From: Escherichia coli
GTDB lineage: Bacteria; Pseudomonadota; Gammaproteobacteria; Enterobacterales; Enterobacteriaceae
Direction: 5' to 3' (one strand)
Assembly: GCF_003018255.1 (NCBI RefSeq)
Contig: NZ_CP027440.1
Length of the DNA stretch: 64,000 nt
The position numbers were made by a program, and so were the translations under genes. Under the pieces are notes generated by a model. That model saw nothing but the letters and a program-made list of their open reading frames with translations. It did no database searches and was not told the DNA's origin. This document shows positions 1 through 32,336 of the stretch, in pieces. Position 1 is the stretch's first letter; every line of letters starts with the position of its first letter.

Positions 1-910
1 CGTCTCGCTCTATAGTGCCCCAAAACCTGGTGATATGGCTTTTATACGCGTGGCATCTTATTACCCCGTTACGATGTTCAGCCAGGTACGCACCCTCCCC
101 CGTGGTTCTGCCGAAGCGCAATACTGCGAGCTGGATGTGGTGCCAGGCGACCTGAACCGCTTTACGCTGACCGGATGCCTGCCACAACGTTCTGAGCCGC
201 TCCCGTTGGCTTTTGCCGTGCAGGATGGTGCCAGCTATGCTGGAGCAATTCTGAAAGATGAGTTAAAACAGGCAGGTATCACCTGGAGCGGAACACTGCT
301 GCGTCAGACGCAGGTTAACGAACCCGGAACGGTAGTTGCCAGTAAACAGTCGGCCCCGTTGCACGATCTGCTTAAGATTATGCTGAAAAAGTCGGACAAC
401 ATGATTGCCGATACGGTTTTCCGCATGATCGGCCATGCGCGCTTCAATGTGCCTGGAACATGGCGGGCCGGGTCGGACGCCGTGCGTCAGATCCTGCGCC
501 AGCAAGCCGGTGTCGATATTGGAAATACCATTATTGCCGATGGTTCAGGGCTTTCGCGGCATAACCTGATTGCTCCCGCCACCATGATGCAGGTGCTGCA
601 ATACATTGCCCAACACGACAATGAACTTAACTTTATCTCTATGCTGCCGCTGGCGGGCTATGACGGCTCTTTGCAGTACCGTGCAGGTCTGCATCAGGCG
701 GGCGTGGATGGAAAAGTCTCAGCGAAAACCGGTTCGTTGCAGGGGGTATATAACCTGGCGGGATTCATTACCACAGCGAGCGGGCAACGAATGGCGTTTG
801 TGCAATATCTTTCTGGCTATGCAGTAGAACCGGCGGATCAGCGTAATCGCCGTATTCCGTTGGTACGTTTTGAAAGCCGTTTGTATAAGGATATTTACCA
901 GAACAATTAG
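1..910 (+). CDS. dacB: D-alanyl-D-alanine carboxypeptidase/endopeptidase PBP4, C-terminal part (5' end lies outside the window)
   Basis: ORF 35..910 translation ends ...SGYAVEPADQRNRRIPLVRFESRLYKDIYQNN, recognised as the PBP4 C-terminus; reading frame is open back to the window edge. Confidence 0.9.
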   Translation, partial: VSLYSAPKPGDMAFIRVASYYPVTMFSQVRTLPRGSAEAQYCELDVVPGDLNRFTLTGCLPQRSEPLPLAFAVQDGASYAGAILKDELKQAGITWSGTLLRQTQVNEPGTVVASKQSAPLHDLLKIMLKKSDNMIADTVFRMIGHARFNVPGTWRAGSDAVRQILRQQAGVDIGNTIIADGSGLSRHNLIAPATMMQVLQYIAQHDNELNFISMLPLAGYDGSLQYRAGLHQAGVDGKVSAKTGSLQGVYNLAGFITTASGQRMAFVQYLSGYAVEPADQRNRRIPLVRFESRLYKDIYQNN

Positions 911-920
911 TCTAAAGAGA

Positions 921-945
921 AACCCCGGCACATGGCCGGGGTTTT
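921..945. terminator. Bidirectional intrinsic terminator between convergent dacB and obgE
   Basis: Stem CCCCGGC / GCCGGGG with 5-nt loop, A-run before and T-run after, so it reads as hairpin plus U-tract on both strands. Confidence 0.7.
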
Positions 946-950
946 GCTGA

Positions 951-2138
<1,188 letters not shown>

Positions 2139-3104
2139 TCATTCGCCTGCGCGGGGTTGCGATACCACCGTTGTATGCTTACGTAATCCGCCCCAAATAC
2201 GATGACCAATGGCGGAATACATCGCGCCCGCAACCACGACAAACGCACCGAGATAACCTAAAAGGTTTAACATCGGTCTGGCGAAGAAATCGGGCCAGGC
2301 CAGTGATAAAAGATCTGAAAAAAACAGCGTAAACAGTGGGGTGAGCGTAATGATCGCGCTCACCTGCGCTGCCTGCCAGCGAGCCATCGCTTCCGCCAGG
2401 GCGCCATATCCTACCAATGTATTCAGTCCGCAAAAAATTAAACATGCGAGCTGCCAGTGGCTAAGCTGCGCTATCACTCCAGGCTTTGCCAGAGGGAAGA
2501 GCGCAATTGTACATAAAGTGTACAGCAAAAACAGGATCTGCGGTGAGGCCAGTCGACGCAATAAAACCTTTTGCGCCACGCCATAACTCACCCACACCGT
2601 CGCCGCACCGACCCCAAAGATTACTCCCCAGGTGTAATCGGTGAGCTTTGTAAATATCTCGACCAGACTGGTGTTAAAAAACATCACCAGGCCGCTCAGG
2701 AGCATCAATGCCCCTACAACCTGAGTGCTGCGCATTTTCTCTTTCAGGATAAATACGCTGGCAACCATCATGCCAACTGGCGAGAGTTGCCCAATCACCT
2801 GCGAAGCGGTCGGACTCAGGTATTGCAAGGATGAGCTGAACAGGATGAAGTTCCCAAACAGCCCGGCGGTCGCCACTGCCAACAAAATCAACCAGCGTGG
2901 CTTACGAAACACGCGTAATGGCGGCAACCGCTTCTTCACCGCAAGAATGGCACCCAGGCCAATACTCGCCATCAAGAAACGGTAAAACACGATTGTCGGA
3001 GGTTCCATCACCTCCAGCACCTGCTTCATTGCGATTGGCAACGCCCCCCAGCAAATTGCTGTGGTGAGCGCCAAAAGAATGCCAATGCCTGCCTGCTGCT
3101 TCAT
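2139..3104 (-). CDS. yhbE: EamA-family inner membrane transporter YhbE
   Basis: 321 aa hydrophobic multi-pass protein directly downstream of rpmA and upstream of obgE, matching the E. coli arrangement. Confidence 0.85.
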   Translation of the reverse strand: MKQQAGIGILLALTTAICWGALPIAMKQVLEVMEPPTIVFYRFLMASIGLGAILAVKKRLPPLRVFRKPRWLILLAVATAGLFGNFILFSSSLQYLSPTASQVIGQLSPVGMMVASVFILKEKMRSTQVVGALMLLSGLVMFFNTSLVEIFTKLTDYTWGVIFGVGAATVWVSYGVAQKVLLRRLASPQILFLLYTLCTIALFPLAKPGVIAQLSHWQLACLIFCGLNTLVGYGALAEAMARWQAAQVSAIITLTPLFTLFFSDLLSLAWPDFFARPMLNLLGYLGAFVVVAGAMYSAIGHRIWGGLRKHTTVVSQPRAGE

Positions 3105-3175
3105 ACCGTATTCCCTGCAAAGCGCATTTGCGGATTAACGTCGCACCATGCGCATTTTTACCGGTTATCGAATGT

Positions 3176-3204
3176 AAAAAGCCCCGCAACGTGTTGCGGG
3201 GCTT
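3176..3204 (-). terminator. Intrinsic terminator downstream of rplU-rpmA
   Basis: Hairpin AAAGCCCCGCAAC-GTGTTGCGGGGCTTT followed on the minus strand by TTTTTACATT. Confidence 0.75.
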
Positions 3205-3230
3205 TCATCCGTTACCGGGACGCGAAAAAC

Positions 3231-3856
<626 letters not shown>

Positions 3857-4078
3857 TCAGAGTGCGCTATAAATATTCACAATAGGGCGCGAATATTACG
3901 CAAAACGCACGCCTTTGACAAGTGCTACAGTCAATACACGAAGAAAAAAAACACAACTTGTACGGTAACGTTTATCTGTGCCATTTTTTCAGTACAATCA
4001 CCCTATATTCCTAACCATAAACCCTAAGTTGCCTTTGTTCACAGTAAGGTAATCGGGGCGAAAAGCCCGGCTTTTGCG

Positions 4079-5050
4079 ATGAATTTAGAAAAAATCAATG
4101 AGTTAACCGCGCAAGATATGGCGGGTGTTAATGCGGCAATCCTTGAGCAGCTTAATTCCGACGTCCAACTGATCAATCAGTTAGGCTATTACATCGTCAG
4201 CGGCGGCGGTAAACGTATTCGTCCGATGATTGCTGTACTGGCTGCACGAGCTGTTGGCTATGAGGGAAATGCGCATGTCACCATTGCTGCCCTGATCGAG
4301 TTTATCCACACGGCGACTCTGCTGCACGACGACGTTGTGGATGAATCAGATATGCGCAGGGGTAAAGCTACCGCCAACGCTGCATTTGGCAATGCCGCCA
4401 GCGTGCTGGTAGGCGATTTTATTTATACCCGCGCGTTCCAGATGATGACCAGCCTCGGCTCGCTCAAAGTGCTGGAAGTCATGTCAGAAGCCGTAAACGT
4501 CATCGCAGAAGGTGAAGTTCTGCAACTGATGAACGTTAACGATCCGGACATCACTGAAGAAAACTACATGCGCGTTATCTATAGCAAAACCGCGCGTCTG
4601 TTTGAGGCTGCCGCGCAGTGTTCCGGGATTCTGGCTGGCTGTACGCCGGAGGAGGAGAAAGGCCTGCAGGATTATGGGCGCTATCTCGGCACTGCTTTCC
4701 AGTTGATCGACGATTTACTCGATTACAATGCCGATGGCGAACAGTTAGGTAAAAACGTCGGCGACGATCTGAACGAAGGTAAACCGACGCTGCCGCTGCT
4801 GCATGCAATGCATCATGGCACACCAGAACAGGCACAGATGATTCGTACCGCCATCGAACAGGGTAACGGTCGCCATCTTCTGGAACCGGTTCTGGAAGCA
4901 ATGAACGCTTGTGGATCTCTTGAATGGACGCGTCAGCGTGCCGAGGAAGAAGCAGACAAAGCCATCGCAGCGTTACAGGTGCTCCCGGACACCCCGTGGC
5001 GAGAAGCACTCATCGGCCTCGCGCACATCGCTGTTCAACGCGATCGTTAA
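4079..5050 (+). CDS. ispB: Octaprenyl diphosphate synthase
   Basis: 323 aa; polyprenyl synthase aspartate-rich motifs (LLHDDVVDESDMRRG and FQLIDDLLDY). Confidence 0.95.
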   Translation: MNLEKINELTAQDMAGVNAAILEQLNSDVQLINQLGYYIVSGGGKRIRPMIAVLAARAVGYEGNAHVTIAALIEFIHTATLLHDDVVDESDMRRGKATANAAFGNAASVLVGDFIYTRAFQMMTSLGSLKVLEVMSEAVNVIAEGEVLQLMNVNDPDITEENYMRVIYSKTARLFEAAAQCSGILAGCTPEEEKGLQDYGRYLGTAFQLIDDLLDYNADGEQLGKNVGDDLNEGKPTLPLLHAMHHGTPEQAQMIRTAIEQGNGRHLLEPVLEAMNACGSLEWTRQRAEEEADKAIAALQVLPDTPWREALIGLAHIAVQRDR

Positions 5051-5277
5051 TCCCCTCCCCTCATCCCGCGCAGCGCGCGGGATGATTCCAGTAAATTCCA
5101 TAAAAACACTTATTCAGCTCTATAACACCTGAAAAATAGGGACGTACATCTTTATATATTCTGAATATTCACACTCTTTACAGGAACTTTTTAGAGCAAT
5201 AGGCCATCAGGAGTATAGTGATGCTCGACAGAAGAAGTGTTCTGAATGAAAGCGACTAACTTAAGGAGTGAGGAAAG

Positions 5278-5556
5278 ATGGAAAGTAATTTCATTGACTG
5301 GCATCCCGCTGACATCATTGCGGGTTTGCGCAAGAAGGGAACGTCAATGGCGGCGGAATCTCGCAGAAATGGTTTGAGTTCCTCAACGCTGGCGAACGCA
5401 TTATCGCGCCCCTGGCCGAAAGGAGAGATGATTATTGCGAAAGCCCTGGGAACTGACCCCTGGATTATCTGGCCATCTCGCTACCATGATCCGCAGACCC
5501 ATGAGTTTATCGACAGAACGCAGTTGATGCGTAGCTACACTAAACCGAAAAAATGA
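5278..5556 (+). CDS. sfsB: Ner-like DNA-binding protein (sugar fermentation stimulation protein B)
   Basis: 92 aa, MESNFIDWHPADIIAGLRKKGTSMAAESRRNGLSSSTLANAL...; Shine-Dalgarno AAGGAG upstream. Confidence 0.9.
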   Translation: MESNFIDWHPADIIAGLRKKGTSMAAESRRNGLSSSTLANALSRPWPKGEMIIAKALGTDPWIIWPSRYHDPQTHEFIDRTQLMRSYTKPKK

Positions 5557-5603
5557 GTGGTCTGGCGGTAGCCCCGCGAACGGGGCTGCCAGCTCTCAGA
5601 CAA

Positions 5604-6863
<1,260 letters not shown>

Positions 6864-6917
6864 TTAGTTTGTTCTCAGTTAACAATTCATATCCGCTACC
6901 GGCGAATCGCCCATAGC

Positions 6918-7172
6918 TCAAAAGCCGTTCAGTTTGCGATCGCGCGCCCACTCCGCAGGGGTATACGCTTTGATCGACACAGCATGAATGCGGTTATCCG
7001 CAATATATTCCATCAGCGGGCCATAGACCGTCTGCTGTTTTTTAACCCGACTCATGCCGTCAAACAACTCACCCACGGCAATAACCTGAAAGTGGCTGCC
7101 ATCGCCGGAAACGTGGACTTCCTGGAGGGAGAGAGCGTTCATCAACACGCTCTGAATTTCATTATTTTCCAT
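6918..7172 (-). CDS. ibaG: BolA-family acid stress protein IbaG (YrbA)
   Basis: True start [14 protein letters not shown] (ATG confirmed at 7170-7172 on the minus strand), 84 aa; ORF-track start is over-extended. Confidence 0.9.
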
Positions 7173-7290
7173 GGGATCTTCAATCATCAGTTAATAAACC
7201 AGCGAAACATCTTAGAGCAAAGTTGCGCTGGCATAAATAAGCAAAAAGCCTCGCTGATAAATCAGACAAGGCTCGACTTGCAGGCAGGTT

Positions 7291-7322
7291 TGCCGGACAG
7301 GCGGTTAACGCCATATCCGGCC
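7291..7322. repeat. REP-like GC-rich palindromic element in the ibaG-mlaB intergenic region
   Basis: TGCCGGACAGGCGGTTAACGCCATATCCGGCC resembles the REP consensus (GCCGGATG...CCGGC) in inverted orientation. Confidence 0.6.
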
Positions 7323-7331
7323 TGAAAAAAT

Positions 7332-7624
7332 TTAACGAGGCAGAACATCAGCAGGCAAATTATACAATTTCGCCAGGGTATACACTTTGTCGTTTACCCC
7401 CTGAAGCGTCACATTGTTGCCCTGCTTTTTCGCCAGATCGATAAGATGGAGCAGCAGCGCCAGTCCACCTGTATCAACGCGGGATACACGGCTAAGATCG
7501 ATACAGGTAATCCCCTTCACCGCTTCCTCACGCATTTCCCAAAGCGGTAGCAGAACGTCCTGATCCAGCTCTCCGGATAACGCCAGCGTGTCACCCGTCT
7601 GCATCCAGCTCAGTGACTCGCTCA

Positions 7625-7625
<1 letters not shown>
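7332..7625 (-). CDS. mlaB: Phospholipid transport STAS-domain protein MlaB
   Basis: 97 aa, MSESLSWMQTGDTLALSGELDQDVL...; first gene of the mlaFEDCB operon order on the minus strand. Confidence 0.93.
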
Positions 7626-10435
<2,810 letters not shown>

Positions 10436-30986: not shown

Positions 30987-31168
30987 GCCTGTCCCAGCGC
31001 CGCCTCCTCAGAAAAGAGTCGGCGCTGAAATTCTCCTTTCTTTCTGGAAAGCGCCTCGCATAATCTGAAGAAAACCAATGTAATACGCTCATCTGGATTG
31101 TTACCGGTAGATGCCCGGCGTATAGCTGATTCCATTATTCAACGCAGCGCCATATAAAGGGACAGATA

Positions 31169-32296
31169 ATGGAATCGCTCTCAGAGAGAACCTCAACAGG
31201 CTACCAGCAAATCCACGACGGTATTATTCACCTGGTCGATAGCGCCCGGACGGAAACGGTACGTAGCGTTAACGCGCTGATGACCGCGACATACTGGGAA
31301 ATTGGCCGACGAATTGTCGAATTTGAACAAGGTGGCGAGGCCAGGGCTGCGTATGGTGCGCAGCTAATCAAGCGACTATCAAAGGATTTAAGTCTAAGGT
31401 ATAAGCGTGGGTTCTCTGCAAAAAACTTACGCCAAATGAGGCTTTTTTACCTCTTTTTTCAACATGTTGAAATTCGCCAGACAGTGTCTGGCGAATTAAC
31501 ACCATTGGGAATTCCGCAGACACCATCTGCAGAATTCCCATCGGCAAAGATTTGGCAGACGCTGTCTGCCAAATCTTTCCCCCTGCCCTGGTCCACCTAC
31601 GTCCGTTTACTTTCCGTTAAAAACCCTGATGCCCGCAGCTTTTATGAAAAAGAGACGCTCCGCTGTGGTTGGTCTGTCCGCCAGCTAGAGCGGCAAATTA
31701 CGACCCAATTTTATGAGCGAACACTACTGTCACATGACAAATCAGCCATGCTGCAACAACACGCTCCTGCCGAGATGCATATTCTTCCGCAACAGGCGAT
31801 ACGCGATCCCTTTGTGCTCGAATTTCTGGAGTTGAAAGATGAATACTCAGAATCTGATTTTGAGGAGGCGCTGATCAACCACCTGATGGATTTCATGCTG
31901 GAACTTGGGGATGATTTTGCCTTTGTTGGTCGGCAGCGAAGGTTACGCATTGATGACAACTGGTTTCGGGTCGATCTGCTGTTTTTCCACCGCCGTTTAC
32001 GCTGCCTGCTAATCGTCGATCTAAAAGTGGGCAAATTCAGCTATAGCGATGCCGGACAGATGAATATGTATCTCAACTACGCCAAAGAGCACTGGACACT
32101 ACCGGATGAAAATCCGCCCATCGGTCTGGTTCTCTGTGCAGAGAAAGGAGCCGGCGAAGCGCATTATGCACTGGCTGGTTTGCCTAACACCGTTCTGGCG
32201 AGTGAATATAAGATGCAACTACCTGATGAAAAACGACTCGCGGATGAACTCGTTCGAACACAGGCGGTGTTAGAGGAAGGCTATAGACGCCGTTAA
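31169..32296 (+). CDS. yhcG: DUF1016 (YhcG-like) protein with predicted C-terminal PD-(D/E)XK nuclease fold
   Basis: 375 aa, MESLSERTSTGYQQIHDGIIHLVDSARTE...; sits directly after gltD with only a 182-bp spacer. Confidence 0.85.
   Translation: MESLSERTSTGYQQIHDGIIHLVDSARTETVRSVNALMTATYWEIGRRIVEFEQGGEARAAYGAQLIKRLSKDLSLRYKRGFSAKNLRQMRLFYLFFQHVEIRQTVSGELTPLGIPQTPSAEFPSAKIWQTLSAKSFPLPWSTYVRLLSVKNPDARSFYEKETLRCGWSVRQLERQITTQFYERTLLSHDKSAMLQQHAPAEMHILPQQAIRDPFVLEFLELKDEYSESDFEEALINHLMDFMLELGDDFAFVGRQRRLRIDDNWFRVDLLFFHRRLRCLLIVDLKVGKFSYSDAGQMNMYLNYAKEHWTLPDENPPIGLVLCAEKGAGEAHYALAGLPNTVLASEYKMQLPDEKRLADELVRTQAVLEEGYRRR
31471..31578. repeat. Three consecutive palindromes with CAGACA/TGTCTG cores inside the yhcG coding sequence
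   Basis: 31471-31497 AATTCGCCAGACA-G-TGTCTGGCGAATT (13-bp arms, perfect); 31509-31539 GGAATTCCGCAGAC-ACC-ATCTGCAGAATTCC (imperfect); 31546-31578 AAAGATTTGGCAGAC-GCT-GTCTGCCAAATCTTT (15-bp arms, perfect). Read directly from the sequence. Confidence 0.85.
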
Positions 32297-32311: not shown

Positions 32312-32336
32312 ATTCTCCAGACACTGTCTGGAGAAT
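32312..32336. repeat. Fourth copy of the same palindrome family, 16 bp after the yhcG stop, between convergent yhcG and yhcH
   Basis: ATTCTCCAGACA-C-TGTCTGGAGAAT, a perfect 12-bp-arm palindrome closely similar to the copy at 31471-31497; no flanking T-run, so not a classical intrinsic terminator. Confidence 0.85.

Follow-up and report, generated by a model that had tools for sequence, protein, structure and literature searches.

Analysis of the yhcG gene in the window, i.e. the whole 64-kb stretch of Escherichia coli DNA that was analysed, indicated that its coding sequence carries copies of a palindromic DNA element found across the DUF1016 family, and the N-terminal domain of the product appears, from sequence comparison, to read the palindrome of its own gene by a simple residue-to-base code. 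We consider it probable, though well short of assured, that YhcG dimers symmetrically read, through their N-domains, a 27-bp palindrome inside the yhcG coding sequence, with autogenous control as the likely role. The palindrome and the residue-base code appear to be new, while the fold of the nuclease domain has been known since 2005. The palindrome result offers a concrete molecular function for DUF1016_N. This domain, previously without an assigned fold or role, occurs in tens of thousands of bacterial, archaeal, phage and plasmid genes.

The placement of the gene at 31169-32296 in the sequence-only reading was confirmed; the frame runs on the plus strand from an ATG at 31169 to a TAA ending at 32296. 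An AAGGGA ribosome-binding site lies 5' of the ATG, and the product contains the peptide quoted in that reading, DNWFRVDLLFFHRRLRCLLIVDLKVGKFSYSDAGQMNMYLNY, and is 99% identical to E. coli clusters named 'PDDEXK nuclease domain-containing protein'. Both Pfam family HMMs (PF17761 and PF06250; COG4804) matched YhcG above threshold, in the order N then C.

31169..32296, plus strand: yhcG open reading frame, 375 aa, stop included, ATG start and TAA end
31223..31720, plus strand: DUF1016_N domain, aa 19-184 (Pfam E=3.5e-42)
31790..32248, plus strand: YhcG_C PDDEXK nuclease domain, aa 208-360 (Pfam E=1.6e-56)

The DUF1016/YhcG family, which takes its name from YhcG, comprises more than 24,000 representative clusters, and its counterpart among phage-protein families is PHROG 22762, which is without functional annotation. 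Searches of PDB sequences with YhcG, as a single sequence and as a profile, returned chance-level matches only, and NCBIfam held no model for the protein. It had been described as uncharacterised, which is not wholly so, since a fold paper of 2005, genetics of 2009 and a listing as a PADLOC candidate exist. Deletion of yhcG was reported to be synthetically lethal with dnaB, dnaN and parE hypomorphs (Hu et al. 2009, PMC2672614), and this published link to replication becomes approachable through defined mutants of site and reader.

The restriction-endonuclease-like fold proposed for the C-terminal half was borne out for the C-terminal domain by a search for known domains, by a predicted structure and by fold comparison. 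The predicted structure contains the alpha-beta-beta-beta-alpha-beta core fold of the PD-(D/E)XK superfamily, and the placement of E228 (codon 31850-31852), D269 (31973-31975), D284 (32018-32020) and K286 (32024-32026) on helix 1, beta2 and beta3 agrees with it. The D...(V/I)DLK signature is likewise in place, as D269 and D284-L-K286 (32018-32026). Among 86 homologs E228 and D269 are each kept in 86/86, K286 in 85/86 and Q297 in 84/86; at residue 284, 68 have D and 18 have E. By prediction, the C-domain is a catalytically intact PD-(D/E)XK nuclease. This assignment is not new; Kosinski et al. (2005, PMC1189080) had already counted YhcG/COG4804 among the superfamily members, giving its motif as E-D-E(I/L/V)K and tying it to DUF91/NucS, and the Pfam domain name reflects the same. 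PD-(D/E)XK relatives of the C-domain are NucS/EndoMS (DUF91), AF1548, the Can2/Card1 nuclease domains, McrC and the FokI cleavage domain. The two-domain architecture of NucS/EndoMS does not extend to YhcG, as only about 123 C-domain residues align; the NucS N-terminal domain is a beta-barrel for dimerisation and ssDNA-binding, whereas that of YhcG is unrelated and all-helical. Sequence identity between the two proteins is about 15%, no sequence-level match was found between YhcG and NucS chains, and the relationship implies no mismatch or flap specificity for YhcG.

A palindrome of 25-29 bp with AATT ends and a CA-S-TG centre was found at one fixed codon position in DUF1016 genes. Among 95 non-redundant genes sampled from Bacteria and Archaea, its position and codon phase were identical in 90; palindrome density at this position was 7.1/kb vs 0.15-0.17/kb elsewhere, and 11.35 of the 13 arm pairs were observed vs 6.2 under synonymous recoding. 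The arm mismatches were G.T (24), A.C (27) and transversions (38), with no wobble preference on either strand, and in view of this lack of a G.U bias the constraint acts on DNA. An early C.A (antisense G.U) mismatch bias, obtained from few copies, was gone in the systematic count. The AT-rich ends are kept even in GC-rich genomes. Few examples show as clearly as this palindrome that a DNA element can be under selection within a coding sequence, here with codon position and phase shared between domains of life; the DNA site partly dictates the peptide and not the reverse. The element is undescribed in the literature searched on DUF1016/yhcG palindromes or inverted repeats, a search whose coverage left out most subscription journals.

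The DUF1016_N domain of YhcG is all-helical in the predicted structure and its structural similarity to the DNA-binding domains of ParB/KorB/SopB is weak; we regard it as a putative sequence-specific DNA-binding module. The variable bases of the palindrome co-vary with residues encoded about 50 nt upstream, in the following helix.

31418..31456, plus strand: putative recognition helix, aa 84-96, A-K85-N-L-R88-Q89-M-R-L-F-Y..., proposed from covariation with the palindrome

Residues 85, 88 and 89 (codons of K85 31421-31423, R88 31430-31432 and Q89 31433-31435) co-vary with palindrome positions k7, k8 and k5/6, respectively. Among the family palindromes Arg85 occurs with G in 22/22, Glu88 with C in 14/14, Lys88 with G in 13/15, and Ala, Trp, Phe or Tyr88 with T in 18/19. 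The covariation is symmetric across both arms, and YhcG would be expected to bind the palindromic site as a dimer. The E. coli alleles fall into two classes, K85/R88 with CGC and R85/W88 with GTG, and two Granulicella paralogs in one genome differ in site code (L130 TC, L171 CC). In effect, the covariation provides a table of natural specificities for a long palindromic site, which could help to predict or re-engineer binding.

At the E. coli locus, three in-frame 39-nt units inside the yhcG ORF and one palindrome past its stop are local copies of the family-wide element.

31471..31497: palindrome unit 1, AATTCGCCAGACA-G-TGTCTGGCGAATT, 13+1+13, perfect, encoding E101-L110
31506..31540: palindrome unit 2, TGGGAATTCCGCAGACACCATCTGCAGAATTCCCA, in-frame 39-nt repeat, k8k7 = CG
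31543..31581: palindrome unit 3, GGCAAAGATTTGGCAGAC-GCT-GTCTGCCAAATCTTTCCC, k8k7 = GG
32312..32336: extragenic palindrome, ATTCTCCAGACA-C-TGTCTGGAGAAT, 16 nt past the stop, k8k7 = TC

The palindromes noticed from the sequence are real, but they had been taken as a separate feature of the junction, whereas they are copies of an element maintained at the nucleotide level throughout the family, apparently the binding site of the protein itself, and tell more about the gene than any other part of it. Unit 1, with k8k7 = GC, is the unit matching the K85/R88 reader of yhcG itself, and its ssDNA hairpin was computed at -13.7 kcal/mol (z -7.8). Unit 2 is non-cognate to the resident reader and codes for an insert predicted to be disordered, and the unit 3 hairpin was computed at -15.8 kcal/mol. 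The extragenic palindrome is in frame with yhcG and forms the nanQ-side edge of the strain-variable segment; the read-through yhcG allele P0023 translates it as ILQTLSGES. Copies downstream of the stop were present only in the window, L010 and L051, and are therefore lineage-specific and not a family feature. A relic copy 5' of yhcG, at about 31020-31050, was rejected, as K-12 homology begins at about 31041 and no convincing half-palindrome was seen.

Elsewhere in the window CAGAC-N3-GTCTG had one match only, with 1 mismatch, at chance level. The 30-nt palindrome, traced through 5121 E. coli genomes, was confined to the gltD-nanQ region at a median of 2 places, which corresponds to a single locus with both strands counted. 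An Rfam search of the palindromes gave mir-3913 as sole match (E=0.4, chance level), no terminator-like tail and no terminator or promoter consensus was found at them, and the phage genomes searched for the E. coli site gave no significant match.

The junction had also been suspected to vary between strains, and it does so: a match to the region was obtained in 5192 of the 5426 complete E. coli genomes, but it covered at least 80% of the region in only 3347. K-12-type strains carry gltF-yhcADEF between gltD and yhcG, yhcG is IS-disrupted or truncated in some strains, and the ST131-type MNCRE44 is entirely without it. The strain-variable gltF...yhcG segment has an extragenic palindrome at either edge, and strains lacking the segment retain a single copy; the palindrome kept at the empty site is kept at the occupied site too, and the extragenic copies are still perfect in ST131-type strains without yhcG. 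Within the gene, variation between alleles is concentrated in one patch.

31399..31720, plus strand: hypervariable patch between E. coli alleles, spanning the reader helix and the palindromes

Within the patch the CEC15-type allele is 54-85% identical, vs 98-100% over the remaining yhcG.

The fold, the catalytic residues, nucleotide-level selection on the palindrome and the covariation come from computation; actual binding, dimerisation, the regulatory consequence and the nuclease substrate are inferred, and the proposed picture is as follows. The cognate site would be the 27-bp palindrome within the yhcG coding sequence, some 12 codons 3' of the recognition helix. Two YhcG copies would occupy its half-sites in a symmetric manner, with residues 85, 88 and 89 together with 142, 170 and 171 reading k7, k8, k5/6 and k2/3 of each half-site. 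With about 50 nt between them, reader and site would be co-inherited and their specificity would change jointly. The self-site would most likely serve autogenous control, working as an operator or roadblock inside the gene or as an anchor in cis that restrains a dangerous nuclease. It would also travel with a promoterless DUF1016 gene lodged between hsdM and hsdS. Units 2 and 3 and the post-stop copy of E. coli would be local duplications with other specificity codes.

Intragenic operators or roadblocks are known from lacO2 in lacZ, galOI in galE and the PurR operator in purB. The pT181 repC origin, the phiX174 gene A origin and the hin enhancer are cis sites that lie within the gene encoding the protein acting on them. 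All of these share with yhcG a protein-binding DNA site inside a coding sequence, and in the Rep cases, as proposed for yhcG, site and specificity determinant are linked and co-evolve. All of these, however, are single-system cases, whereas the DUF1016 site occupies one codon position and phase family-wide and is a symmetric 27-bp palindrome with a readable code. ParB/Spo0J/KorB/SopB HTH domains also have palindromic sites (parS, OB, sopC), their resemblance to the YhcG N-domain being weak. Controller (C) proteins of R-M systems time R-M expression through palindromic operators (C-boxes), but they are small HTH proteins whose operators lie upstream of their own genes, while the DUF1016 palindrome lies inside the gene.

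We think it rather unlikely that the self-site is instead, or in addition, a cleavage or recombination target of a rare-cutting, long-site nuclease, serving exclusion of incoming DNA with a gene of like specificity, mobility or gene conversion, or addiction in which the DNA of the gene would sequester the nuclease. A sequence-reading domain joined to an intact predicted nuclease would suit this role; so would the divergent patch of about 300 nt centred on the palindromes, as expected of a break-initiated conversion tract, the extragenic palindromes at both edges of the variable segment with a single copy at the empty site, the fast diversification of specificity exemplified by the Granulicella paralogs, and the association of the family with R-M loci, integrases and mobile elements. 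However, the site is whole in every resident gene and is not destroyed by insertion like a homing site, the E. coli site is absent from the phage genomes searched, the promoter-proximal copies look regulatory, and the mosaic patch is equally accounted for by co-inheritance of reader and site. The homing endonuclease I-TevI doubles as a repressor of its promoter, leaving uncut the operator that it binds at its own gene, and I-Ssp6803I is a PD-(D/E)XK homing endonuclease with a pseudo-palindromic site. Both resemble the proposed YhcG in being long-site, sequence-specific nucleases, but yhcG, unlike homing endonuclease genes, has no intron or intein context and its site is not split by gene insertion. 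Identification as a homing endonuclease gene was rejected, the site being intact in every resident gene and the palindrome being kept at both empty and occupied sites. It is similarly doubtful, though conceivable, that DUF1016 proteins at large are reprogrammable readers of about 27 bp joined to a nuclease, with a near one-residue-one-base code and the self-site as operator or antidote, each gene being a single-gene self-recognition module whose linked reader and site co-evolve, so that loss of the locus or a second cognate site would lead to cleavage (addiction or exclusion).

There is a still smaller chance that the palindrome works by folding into a DNA hairpin or cruciform whose structure, not sequence, is recognised by the nuclease, intrastrand pairing keeping the arms complementary. 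The fold relatives of the nuclease include NucS and Holliday-junction resolvases, and this explanation was at first favoured for the arm covariation; it was demoted because the tables for residues 85 and 88 explain the data better. It does not predict that residues encoded 50 nt upstream track bases by chemically sensible rules, nor the conserved AATT ends and CA-S-TG centre, and extruding a cruciform with 13-bp arms requires strong supercoiling. Structure recognition and sequence reading may both hold.

It is very improbable that the palindrome is functionless, either a selfish insertion (REP, MITE or Rickettsia-RPE-like) or a quasi-palindrome perfected by template-switch correction. Palindromes are hot spots for template switching and slippage, E. 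coli alleles have between 1 and 3 units, and the extragenic copies are perfect without the gene in ST131-type strains; against this stand the constant position and phase in Bacteria and Archaea, the AT-rich ends that persist in GC-rich genomes, and the covariation with distant protein residues, a covariation that neutrality would not predict. A dispersed or selfish repeat (REP/BIME, MITE, Rickettsia RPE) was rejected because E. coli genomes carry the palindrome at one locus only and not in many copies. Least credible of all is an RNA hairpin (mRNA or antisense) acting as attenuator, processing site, translational operator or ToxI-like repeat, for although the element is transcribed within the ORF, the tandem arrays resemble type III antitoxin RNAs and a divergent ncRNA, G0-10703, is reported 5' of yhcG in K-12, G.T mismatches do not exceed A.C in frequency, neither an Rfam family nor a terminator-like tail was found, and the residue-base code indicates double-stranded DNA.

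The proposed reading of a self-site by DUF1016_N also bears on the genomic setting of the family. The sequence-only reading had stated that yhcG has no adjacent partner genes; this stands for the window, where yhcG is a solitary gene between gltD upstream and nanQ downstream, without a methylase, helicase, toxin-antitoxin or other hsd-type neighbour, but it holds only for enterobacteria. Outside them DUF1016 genes usually lie within type I R-M operons, typically in the order hsdM-DUF1016-hsdS(-hsdR); the tight upstream neighbours of family members were HsdM in 10 and HsdS in 1 among 20, and HsdS or HsdR was downstream in 5/10. The palindrome gives a handle on this placement. A place inside type I R-M operons is shared with other accessory genes (PrrC/RloC-type latent nucleases, RhuM and Fic), although DUF1016, compared with the PrrC/RloC type, is not an anticodon nuclease fold. 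YhcG matched the PADLOC PDC-S02 model PDLC04807 over residues 8-370 (E=3e-136). One cold-seep PDC-S02 representative gave no protection against T4, T5 and T7 in E. coli B (bioRxiv 10.1101/2024.09.26.614923). PDC-S02 has the status of a defence candidate only, and the yhcG of E. coli is a chromosomal gene with conserved synteny in Enterobacteriaceae.

Analysis of the gene order indicated that the region is of the Escherichia type, gltB-gltD / yhcG / nanQ-nanK-nanE-nanT-nanA. The yhcG gene, its deduced domains and the palindromic repeats associated with it are listed here, k-positions being the bases of the palindrome half-site and the two-letter code denoting k8k7.

31169-32296, + strand: yhcG ORF, 375 aa, ribosome-binding site AAGGGA
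YhcG residues 19-184: DUF1016_N (Pfam, E=3.5e-42)
YhcG residues 208-360: YhcG_C 'PDDEXK nuclease domain' (Pfam, E=1.6e-56)
31471-31497, inside the yhcG ORF: palindrome unit 1, k8k7 GC
31506-31540, inside the yhcG ORF: palindrome unit 2, k8k7 CG
31543-31581, inside the yhcG ORF: palindrome unit 3, k8k7 GG
32312-32336, 16 nt past the yhcG stop: extragenic palindrome, k8k7 TC

The deduced YhcG shares 99% identity with E. coli proteins that bear the annotation 'PDDEXK nuclease domain-containing protein' or DUF1016, and its translation contains the peptide quoted in the sequence-only reading. The PD-(D/E)XK nuclease assignment made there is correct, as indicated by the Pfam YhcG_C match, yet the fold was already known: YhcG/COG4804 had been placed in this superfamily with the motif E-D-E(I/L/V)K and linked to DUF91 (NucS), the helical N-terminal domain of ~200 aa being uncharacterised as of 2005 (Kosinski, Feder and Bujnicki 2005, PMC1189080). 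The network neighbours of YhcG include HsdMRS, McrABC and integrases, and deletion of yhcG combined with hypomorphic dnaB, dnaN or parE alleles is synthetically lethal (Hu et al. 2009, PMC2672614). YhcG also matches the PADLOC defence candidate PDC-S02 (E=3e-136), whose sole tested representative left E. coli B unprotected against T4, T5 and T7 (bioRxiv 10.1101/2024.09.26.614923). The 'DUF1016 family protein' is 17-fold enriched beside programmed-inversion target genes and occurs within type I R-M operons (Milman et al. 2023, PMC9881135). A literature search by sequence string and concept, mostly outside subscription journals, retrieved no description of the palindrome and no link between it and DUF1016/yhcG.

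The proposal that yhcG lies at a strain-variable junction was borne out, since the region matched in 5192 of 5426 complete E. coli genomes with a coverage of at least 80% in just 3347. In K-12-type strains gltF-yhcADEF is placed between gltD and yhcG, so that the upstream junction differs from that of the window strain, while the ST131-type strain MNCRE44 is devoid of yhcG and carries only 67 nt between gltD and nanQ. The gene is dispensable and has decayed repeatedly among E. coli lineages: in several it is broken by IS1 or another transposase, or shortened to a 'DUF1016 N-terminal domain-containing protein'.

The yhcG ORF contains three tandem units of 39 nt (13 codons), each harboring a palindrome of 25-39 nt. 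The Pfam N-domain match covers 166 residues of YhcG vs 137 model positions, and most of the repeat array is therefore an insertion. The number of units in an Escherichia allele is one (349 aa), two (362/370 aa) or three (375 aa), and in allele P0023 the stop codon is lost and the downstream copy is translated as ILQTLSGES. Salmonella and Citrobacter orthologs at the gltD-nan junction have one unit and lack the extragenic copy. In E. coli genomes the palindrome is confined to the yhcG locus, and none of the phage genomes searched carries it.

At the equivalent place, distant homologs of 35-45% identity have peptides that are repeated but differ in sequence (YTVCKE, IHNSVVE, GYAVRSQ, GQTLSDQ), encoded by DNA that is palindromic like that of yhcG. 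The family was sampled as 80 loci from viral contigs and 80 from genomes, together covering Proteobacteria, Acidobacteria, Cyanobacteria, Nitrospirae, Planctomycetes, Verrucomicrobia, Bacteroidetes, Firmicutes, Actinobacteria, Methanoperedens and DPANN archaea. In the 95 non-redundant genes, the density of palindromes of at least 10 pairs, with at most one mismatch and a loop of at most 5, was 7.1 per kb in the linker corresponding to YhcG residues 94-142, against 0.15 per kb elsewhere in the gene and 0.17 per kb in the flanks; 74/95 loci carried at least one in the linker. In the best unit of each gene a mean of 11.35 out of 13 arm positions were paired, compared with 6.21 when the same peptide was re-encoded with codons drawn from the gene's own codon usage; pairing exceeded this control at p<0.01 in 82/95 loci, and at least 10/13 pairs were found in 87/95. 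The centre of the palindrome is the first codon base in 90/95. The consensus, (A/G)ATT-N3-CAGACA-(C/G)-TGTCTG-N3-AAT(T/C), has conserved ends and a conserved C-A-S-T-G centre, while k7-k9 are variable yet complementary.

A blind BLAST search of 72,556 plasmids with the 30-nt E. coli palindrome gave hits at E=2e-4 to 1e-2 in records of Hymenobacter, Pseudomonas, Citrobacter, Cupriavidus and Variovorax, those of Nostoc appearing at E about 5 only. Annotated matches were nearly always located in a 'PDDEXK nuclease domain-containing protein'; the element is therefore far better conserved than the surrounding protein.

The non-Watson-Crick positions of the arms (k2-13) comprised 27 A.C, 24 G.T and 38 other, with no wobble tolerance or strand asymmetry, and an Rfam search of the palindromes matched no family; an RNA-level element was rejected on these grounds in favour of DNA. 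No terminator or promoter consensus was found at the yhcG palindromes. As single-stranded DNA the units are predicted to form very stable hairpins of -10 to -16 kcal/mol (z -5.6 to -7.8), and a hairpin or cruciform is thus physically possible.

An AF2 model of the N-domain only (single-unit O157 allele; pLDDT 89, pTM 0.80) is all-helical, and the palindrome-encoded peptide forms a low-confidence loop from helix 84-96 to the helix beginning at the invariant Trp, where extra units would be tolerated as disordered inserts. When mutual information was computed between the protein columns and the variable bases of the palindrome, residue 88 proved to covary with k8 (0.79) and residue 85 with k7 (0.72), the two residues lying one turn apart on helix 84-96. 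V100, adjoining the palindrome-encoded peptide, reached 0.49-0.58 and all remaining columns at most 0.41. At k7, Arg85 pairs with G.C (22/22), Thr85 with T.A (10/13), and Ser85 and Ala85 with C.G (8/11 and 6/6); at k8, Glu88 pairs with C.G (14/14), Lys88 with G.C (13/15), and Ala, Trp, Phe or Tyr88 with T.A (18/19). Further pairings were Arg171 with C.G at k2 (53/55), Arg/Lys89 with C.G at k5 (7/8), Arg170 with C.G at k3 (6/7), and Val/Leu/Ile170 and Ser142 with A.T at k3. The tables for residues 85 and 88 agree with recognised amino-acid-base preferences, and the two positions combine freely: beside R85, residue 88 may be E, A, W, K or R, each predicting its own base. The site begins some 50 nt downstream of the reader codons; neither a genetic-code nor a base-pairing relation explains the covariation.

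Across 33 phylogenetically independent sister pairs, a change of residue 88 accompanied a change of k8 (table [[6,0],[5,22]], p=4e-4) and a change of residue 85 one of k7 (p=0.03). Control residues 89, 92 and 91 were not significant (p=0.14, 0.19 and 1), and residue 84, adjacent to 85, was (p=0.0096). Outside the cases from which it was derived, the code fitted Hymenobacter (Q85/Y88 with TC), Nostoc (S85/Q88 with GC), Pseudomonas (P85/Q88 with GC) and both classes of E. coli allele, that of the window (K85/R88 with GC) and that of strain CEC15 (R85/W88 with TG). Salmonella fitted at k7 and not at k8, and the C. koseri site is imperfect; the code, though strong, is not absolute. Several genomes carry two DUF1016 paralogs (L114/L132, L121/L123, L130/L171, L108/L148). 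In Granulicella both are readable and their site codes differ (L130 TC vs L171 CC), as would be expected if paralogs were insulated from cross-recognition.

Judged by this code, unit 1 would be the cognate site bound by the K85/R88 reader of the window allele, and the other two units and the copy past the stop carry different codes. E. coli allele classes are ~100% identical in yhcG outside a ~300-nt patch of 54-85% identity which covers the reader helix and the palindromes, so reader and site switch together. K-12-type strains carry a cognate-type palindrome 13 nt past the gltD stop (2501-2528 of L005, a K-12 derivative) and another after yhcG, and the variable gltF-yhcADEF-yhcG segment is therefore bracketed; the segment-less MNCRE44 keeps one perfect palindrome in its 67-nt gltD-nanQ spacer (L004 2500-2530). 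This arrangement suggests that the segment was gained or lost through recombination at the bracketing palindromes.

At most of the sampled loci the DUF1016 gene lacks its own promoter. Among 20 tightly coupled upstream neighbours were 10 HsdM-type methyltransferases, one HsdS and three tyrosine recombinases, and HsdS or HsdR is found downstream. In four loci (L048, L049, L073, L142) a second cognate copy lies 12-27 nt upstream of the start codon, which by its placement would be an operator position; in L073 a TATAAT-like -10 element precedes it and the RBS follows. A cis site that must travel with a promoterless gene can be placed solely inside the ORF, and the structurally permissive loop beside the recognition helix is the obvious place. 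On account of the upstream copies and the promoterless genes we favour autogenous control, in which the self-site would act as an intragenic operator or roadblock, or alternatively would anchor a potentially toxic nuclease in cis. The chief alternative, that the self-site is a target of cleavage, exclusion or recombination, draws on the fusion of the reader domain to a nuclease, a mosaic patch with the site at its centre, the copies bracketing the variable segment and the rapid diversification of the site; we consider it rather unlikely. The biological role may be R-M-linked defence or, as suggested in PMC2672614, processing of replication intermediates. Intragenic operators and cis sites inside the user protein's own gene are known in kind; new are a site fixed at a single codon position and phase throughout a huge family of both prokaryotic domains, its dictating part of the peptide sequence, and its covariation with nearby reader residues through a legible code.

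Locus L007 carries a type III-like mod-DUF1016-res operon with overlapping stop/start codons and at least four palindrome units in its DUF1016 gene. At 256-8575 a HigB-like toxin and an HTH/M78-peptidase gene precede the operon and a Y1 transposase follows, making the locus a dense island of defence and mobile elements. In several loci, namely a P. aeruginosa IncP megaplasmid (L178 1-2329), L062, L070 and L130, site-specific integrase or tyrosine-recombinase genes lie directly upstream of DUF1016 and overlap it. In Nostoc punctiforme plasmid pNPUN05 (L177 801-2832) the DUF1016 gene comes directly after parA and a small ORF in the same orientation, in the slot expected for parB, and the DUF1016 N-domain weakly resembles ParB DNA-binding domains. 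Locus L017 has a second DUF1016 N-terminal fragment at 490-545 (coding for ISQTVSAEFKLSWSH, with its palindrome), 1.3 kb upstream of the intact gene and separated from it by two small ORFs (705-1277, 1274-1654); its appearance suggests a duplication or insertion that was broken in the region of the palindrome. A similar arrangement occurs in L126 at about 706.

Directly past the gltD stop of the window a GC-rich inverted repeat (CAGCGCCGCCTC ... GAGTCGGCGCTG, 30995-31027) is probably the gltBD terminator, and the initial ~55 nt past this stop have no counterpart in K-12-type strains. The divergent stationary-phase ncRNA G0-10703 of the K-12 yhcF-yhcG intergenic region reportedly overlaps the yhcG 5' UTR by 128 bp (PMC7967276). 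In Salmonella enterica (L174 4219-6739) cytosine/purine-type transporter and amidohydrolase genes lie between yhcG and nanQ, which makes the nanQ side, too, a point of variable insertion in other genera.
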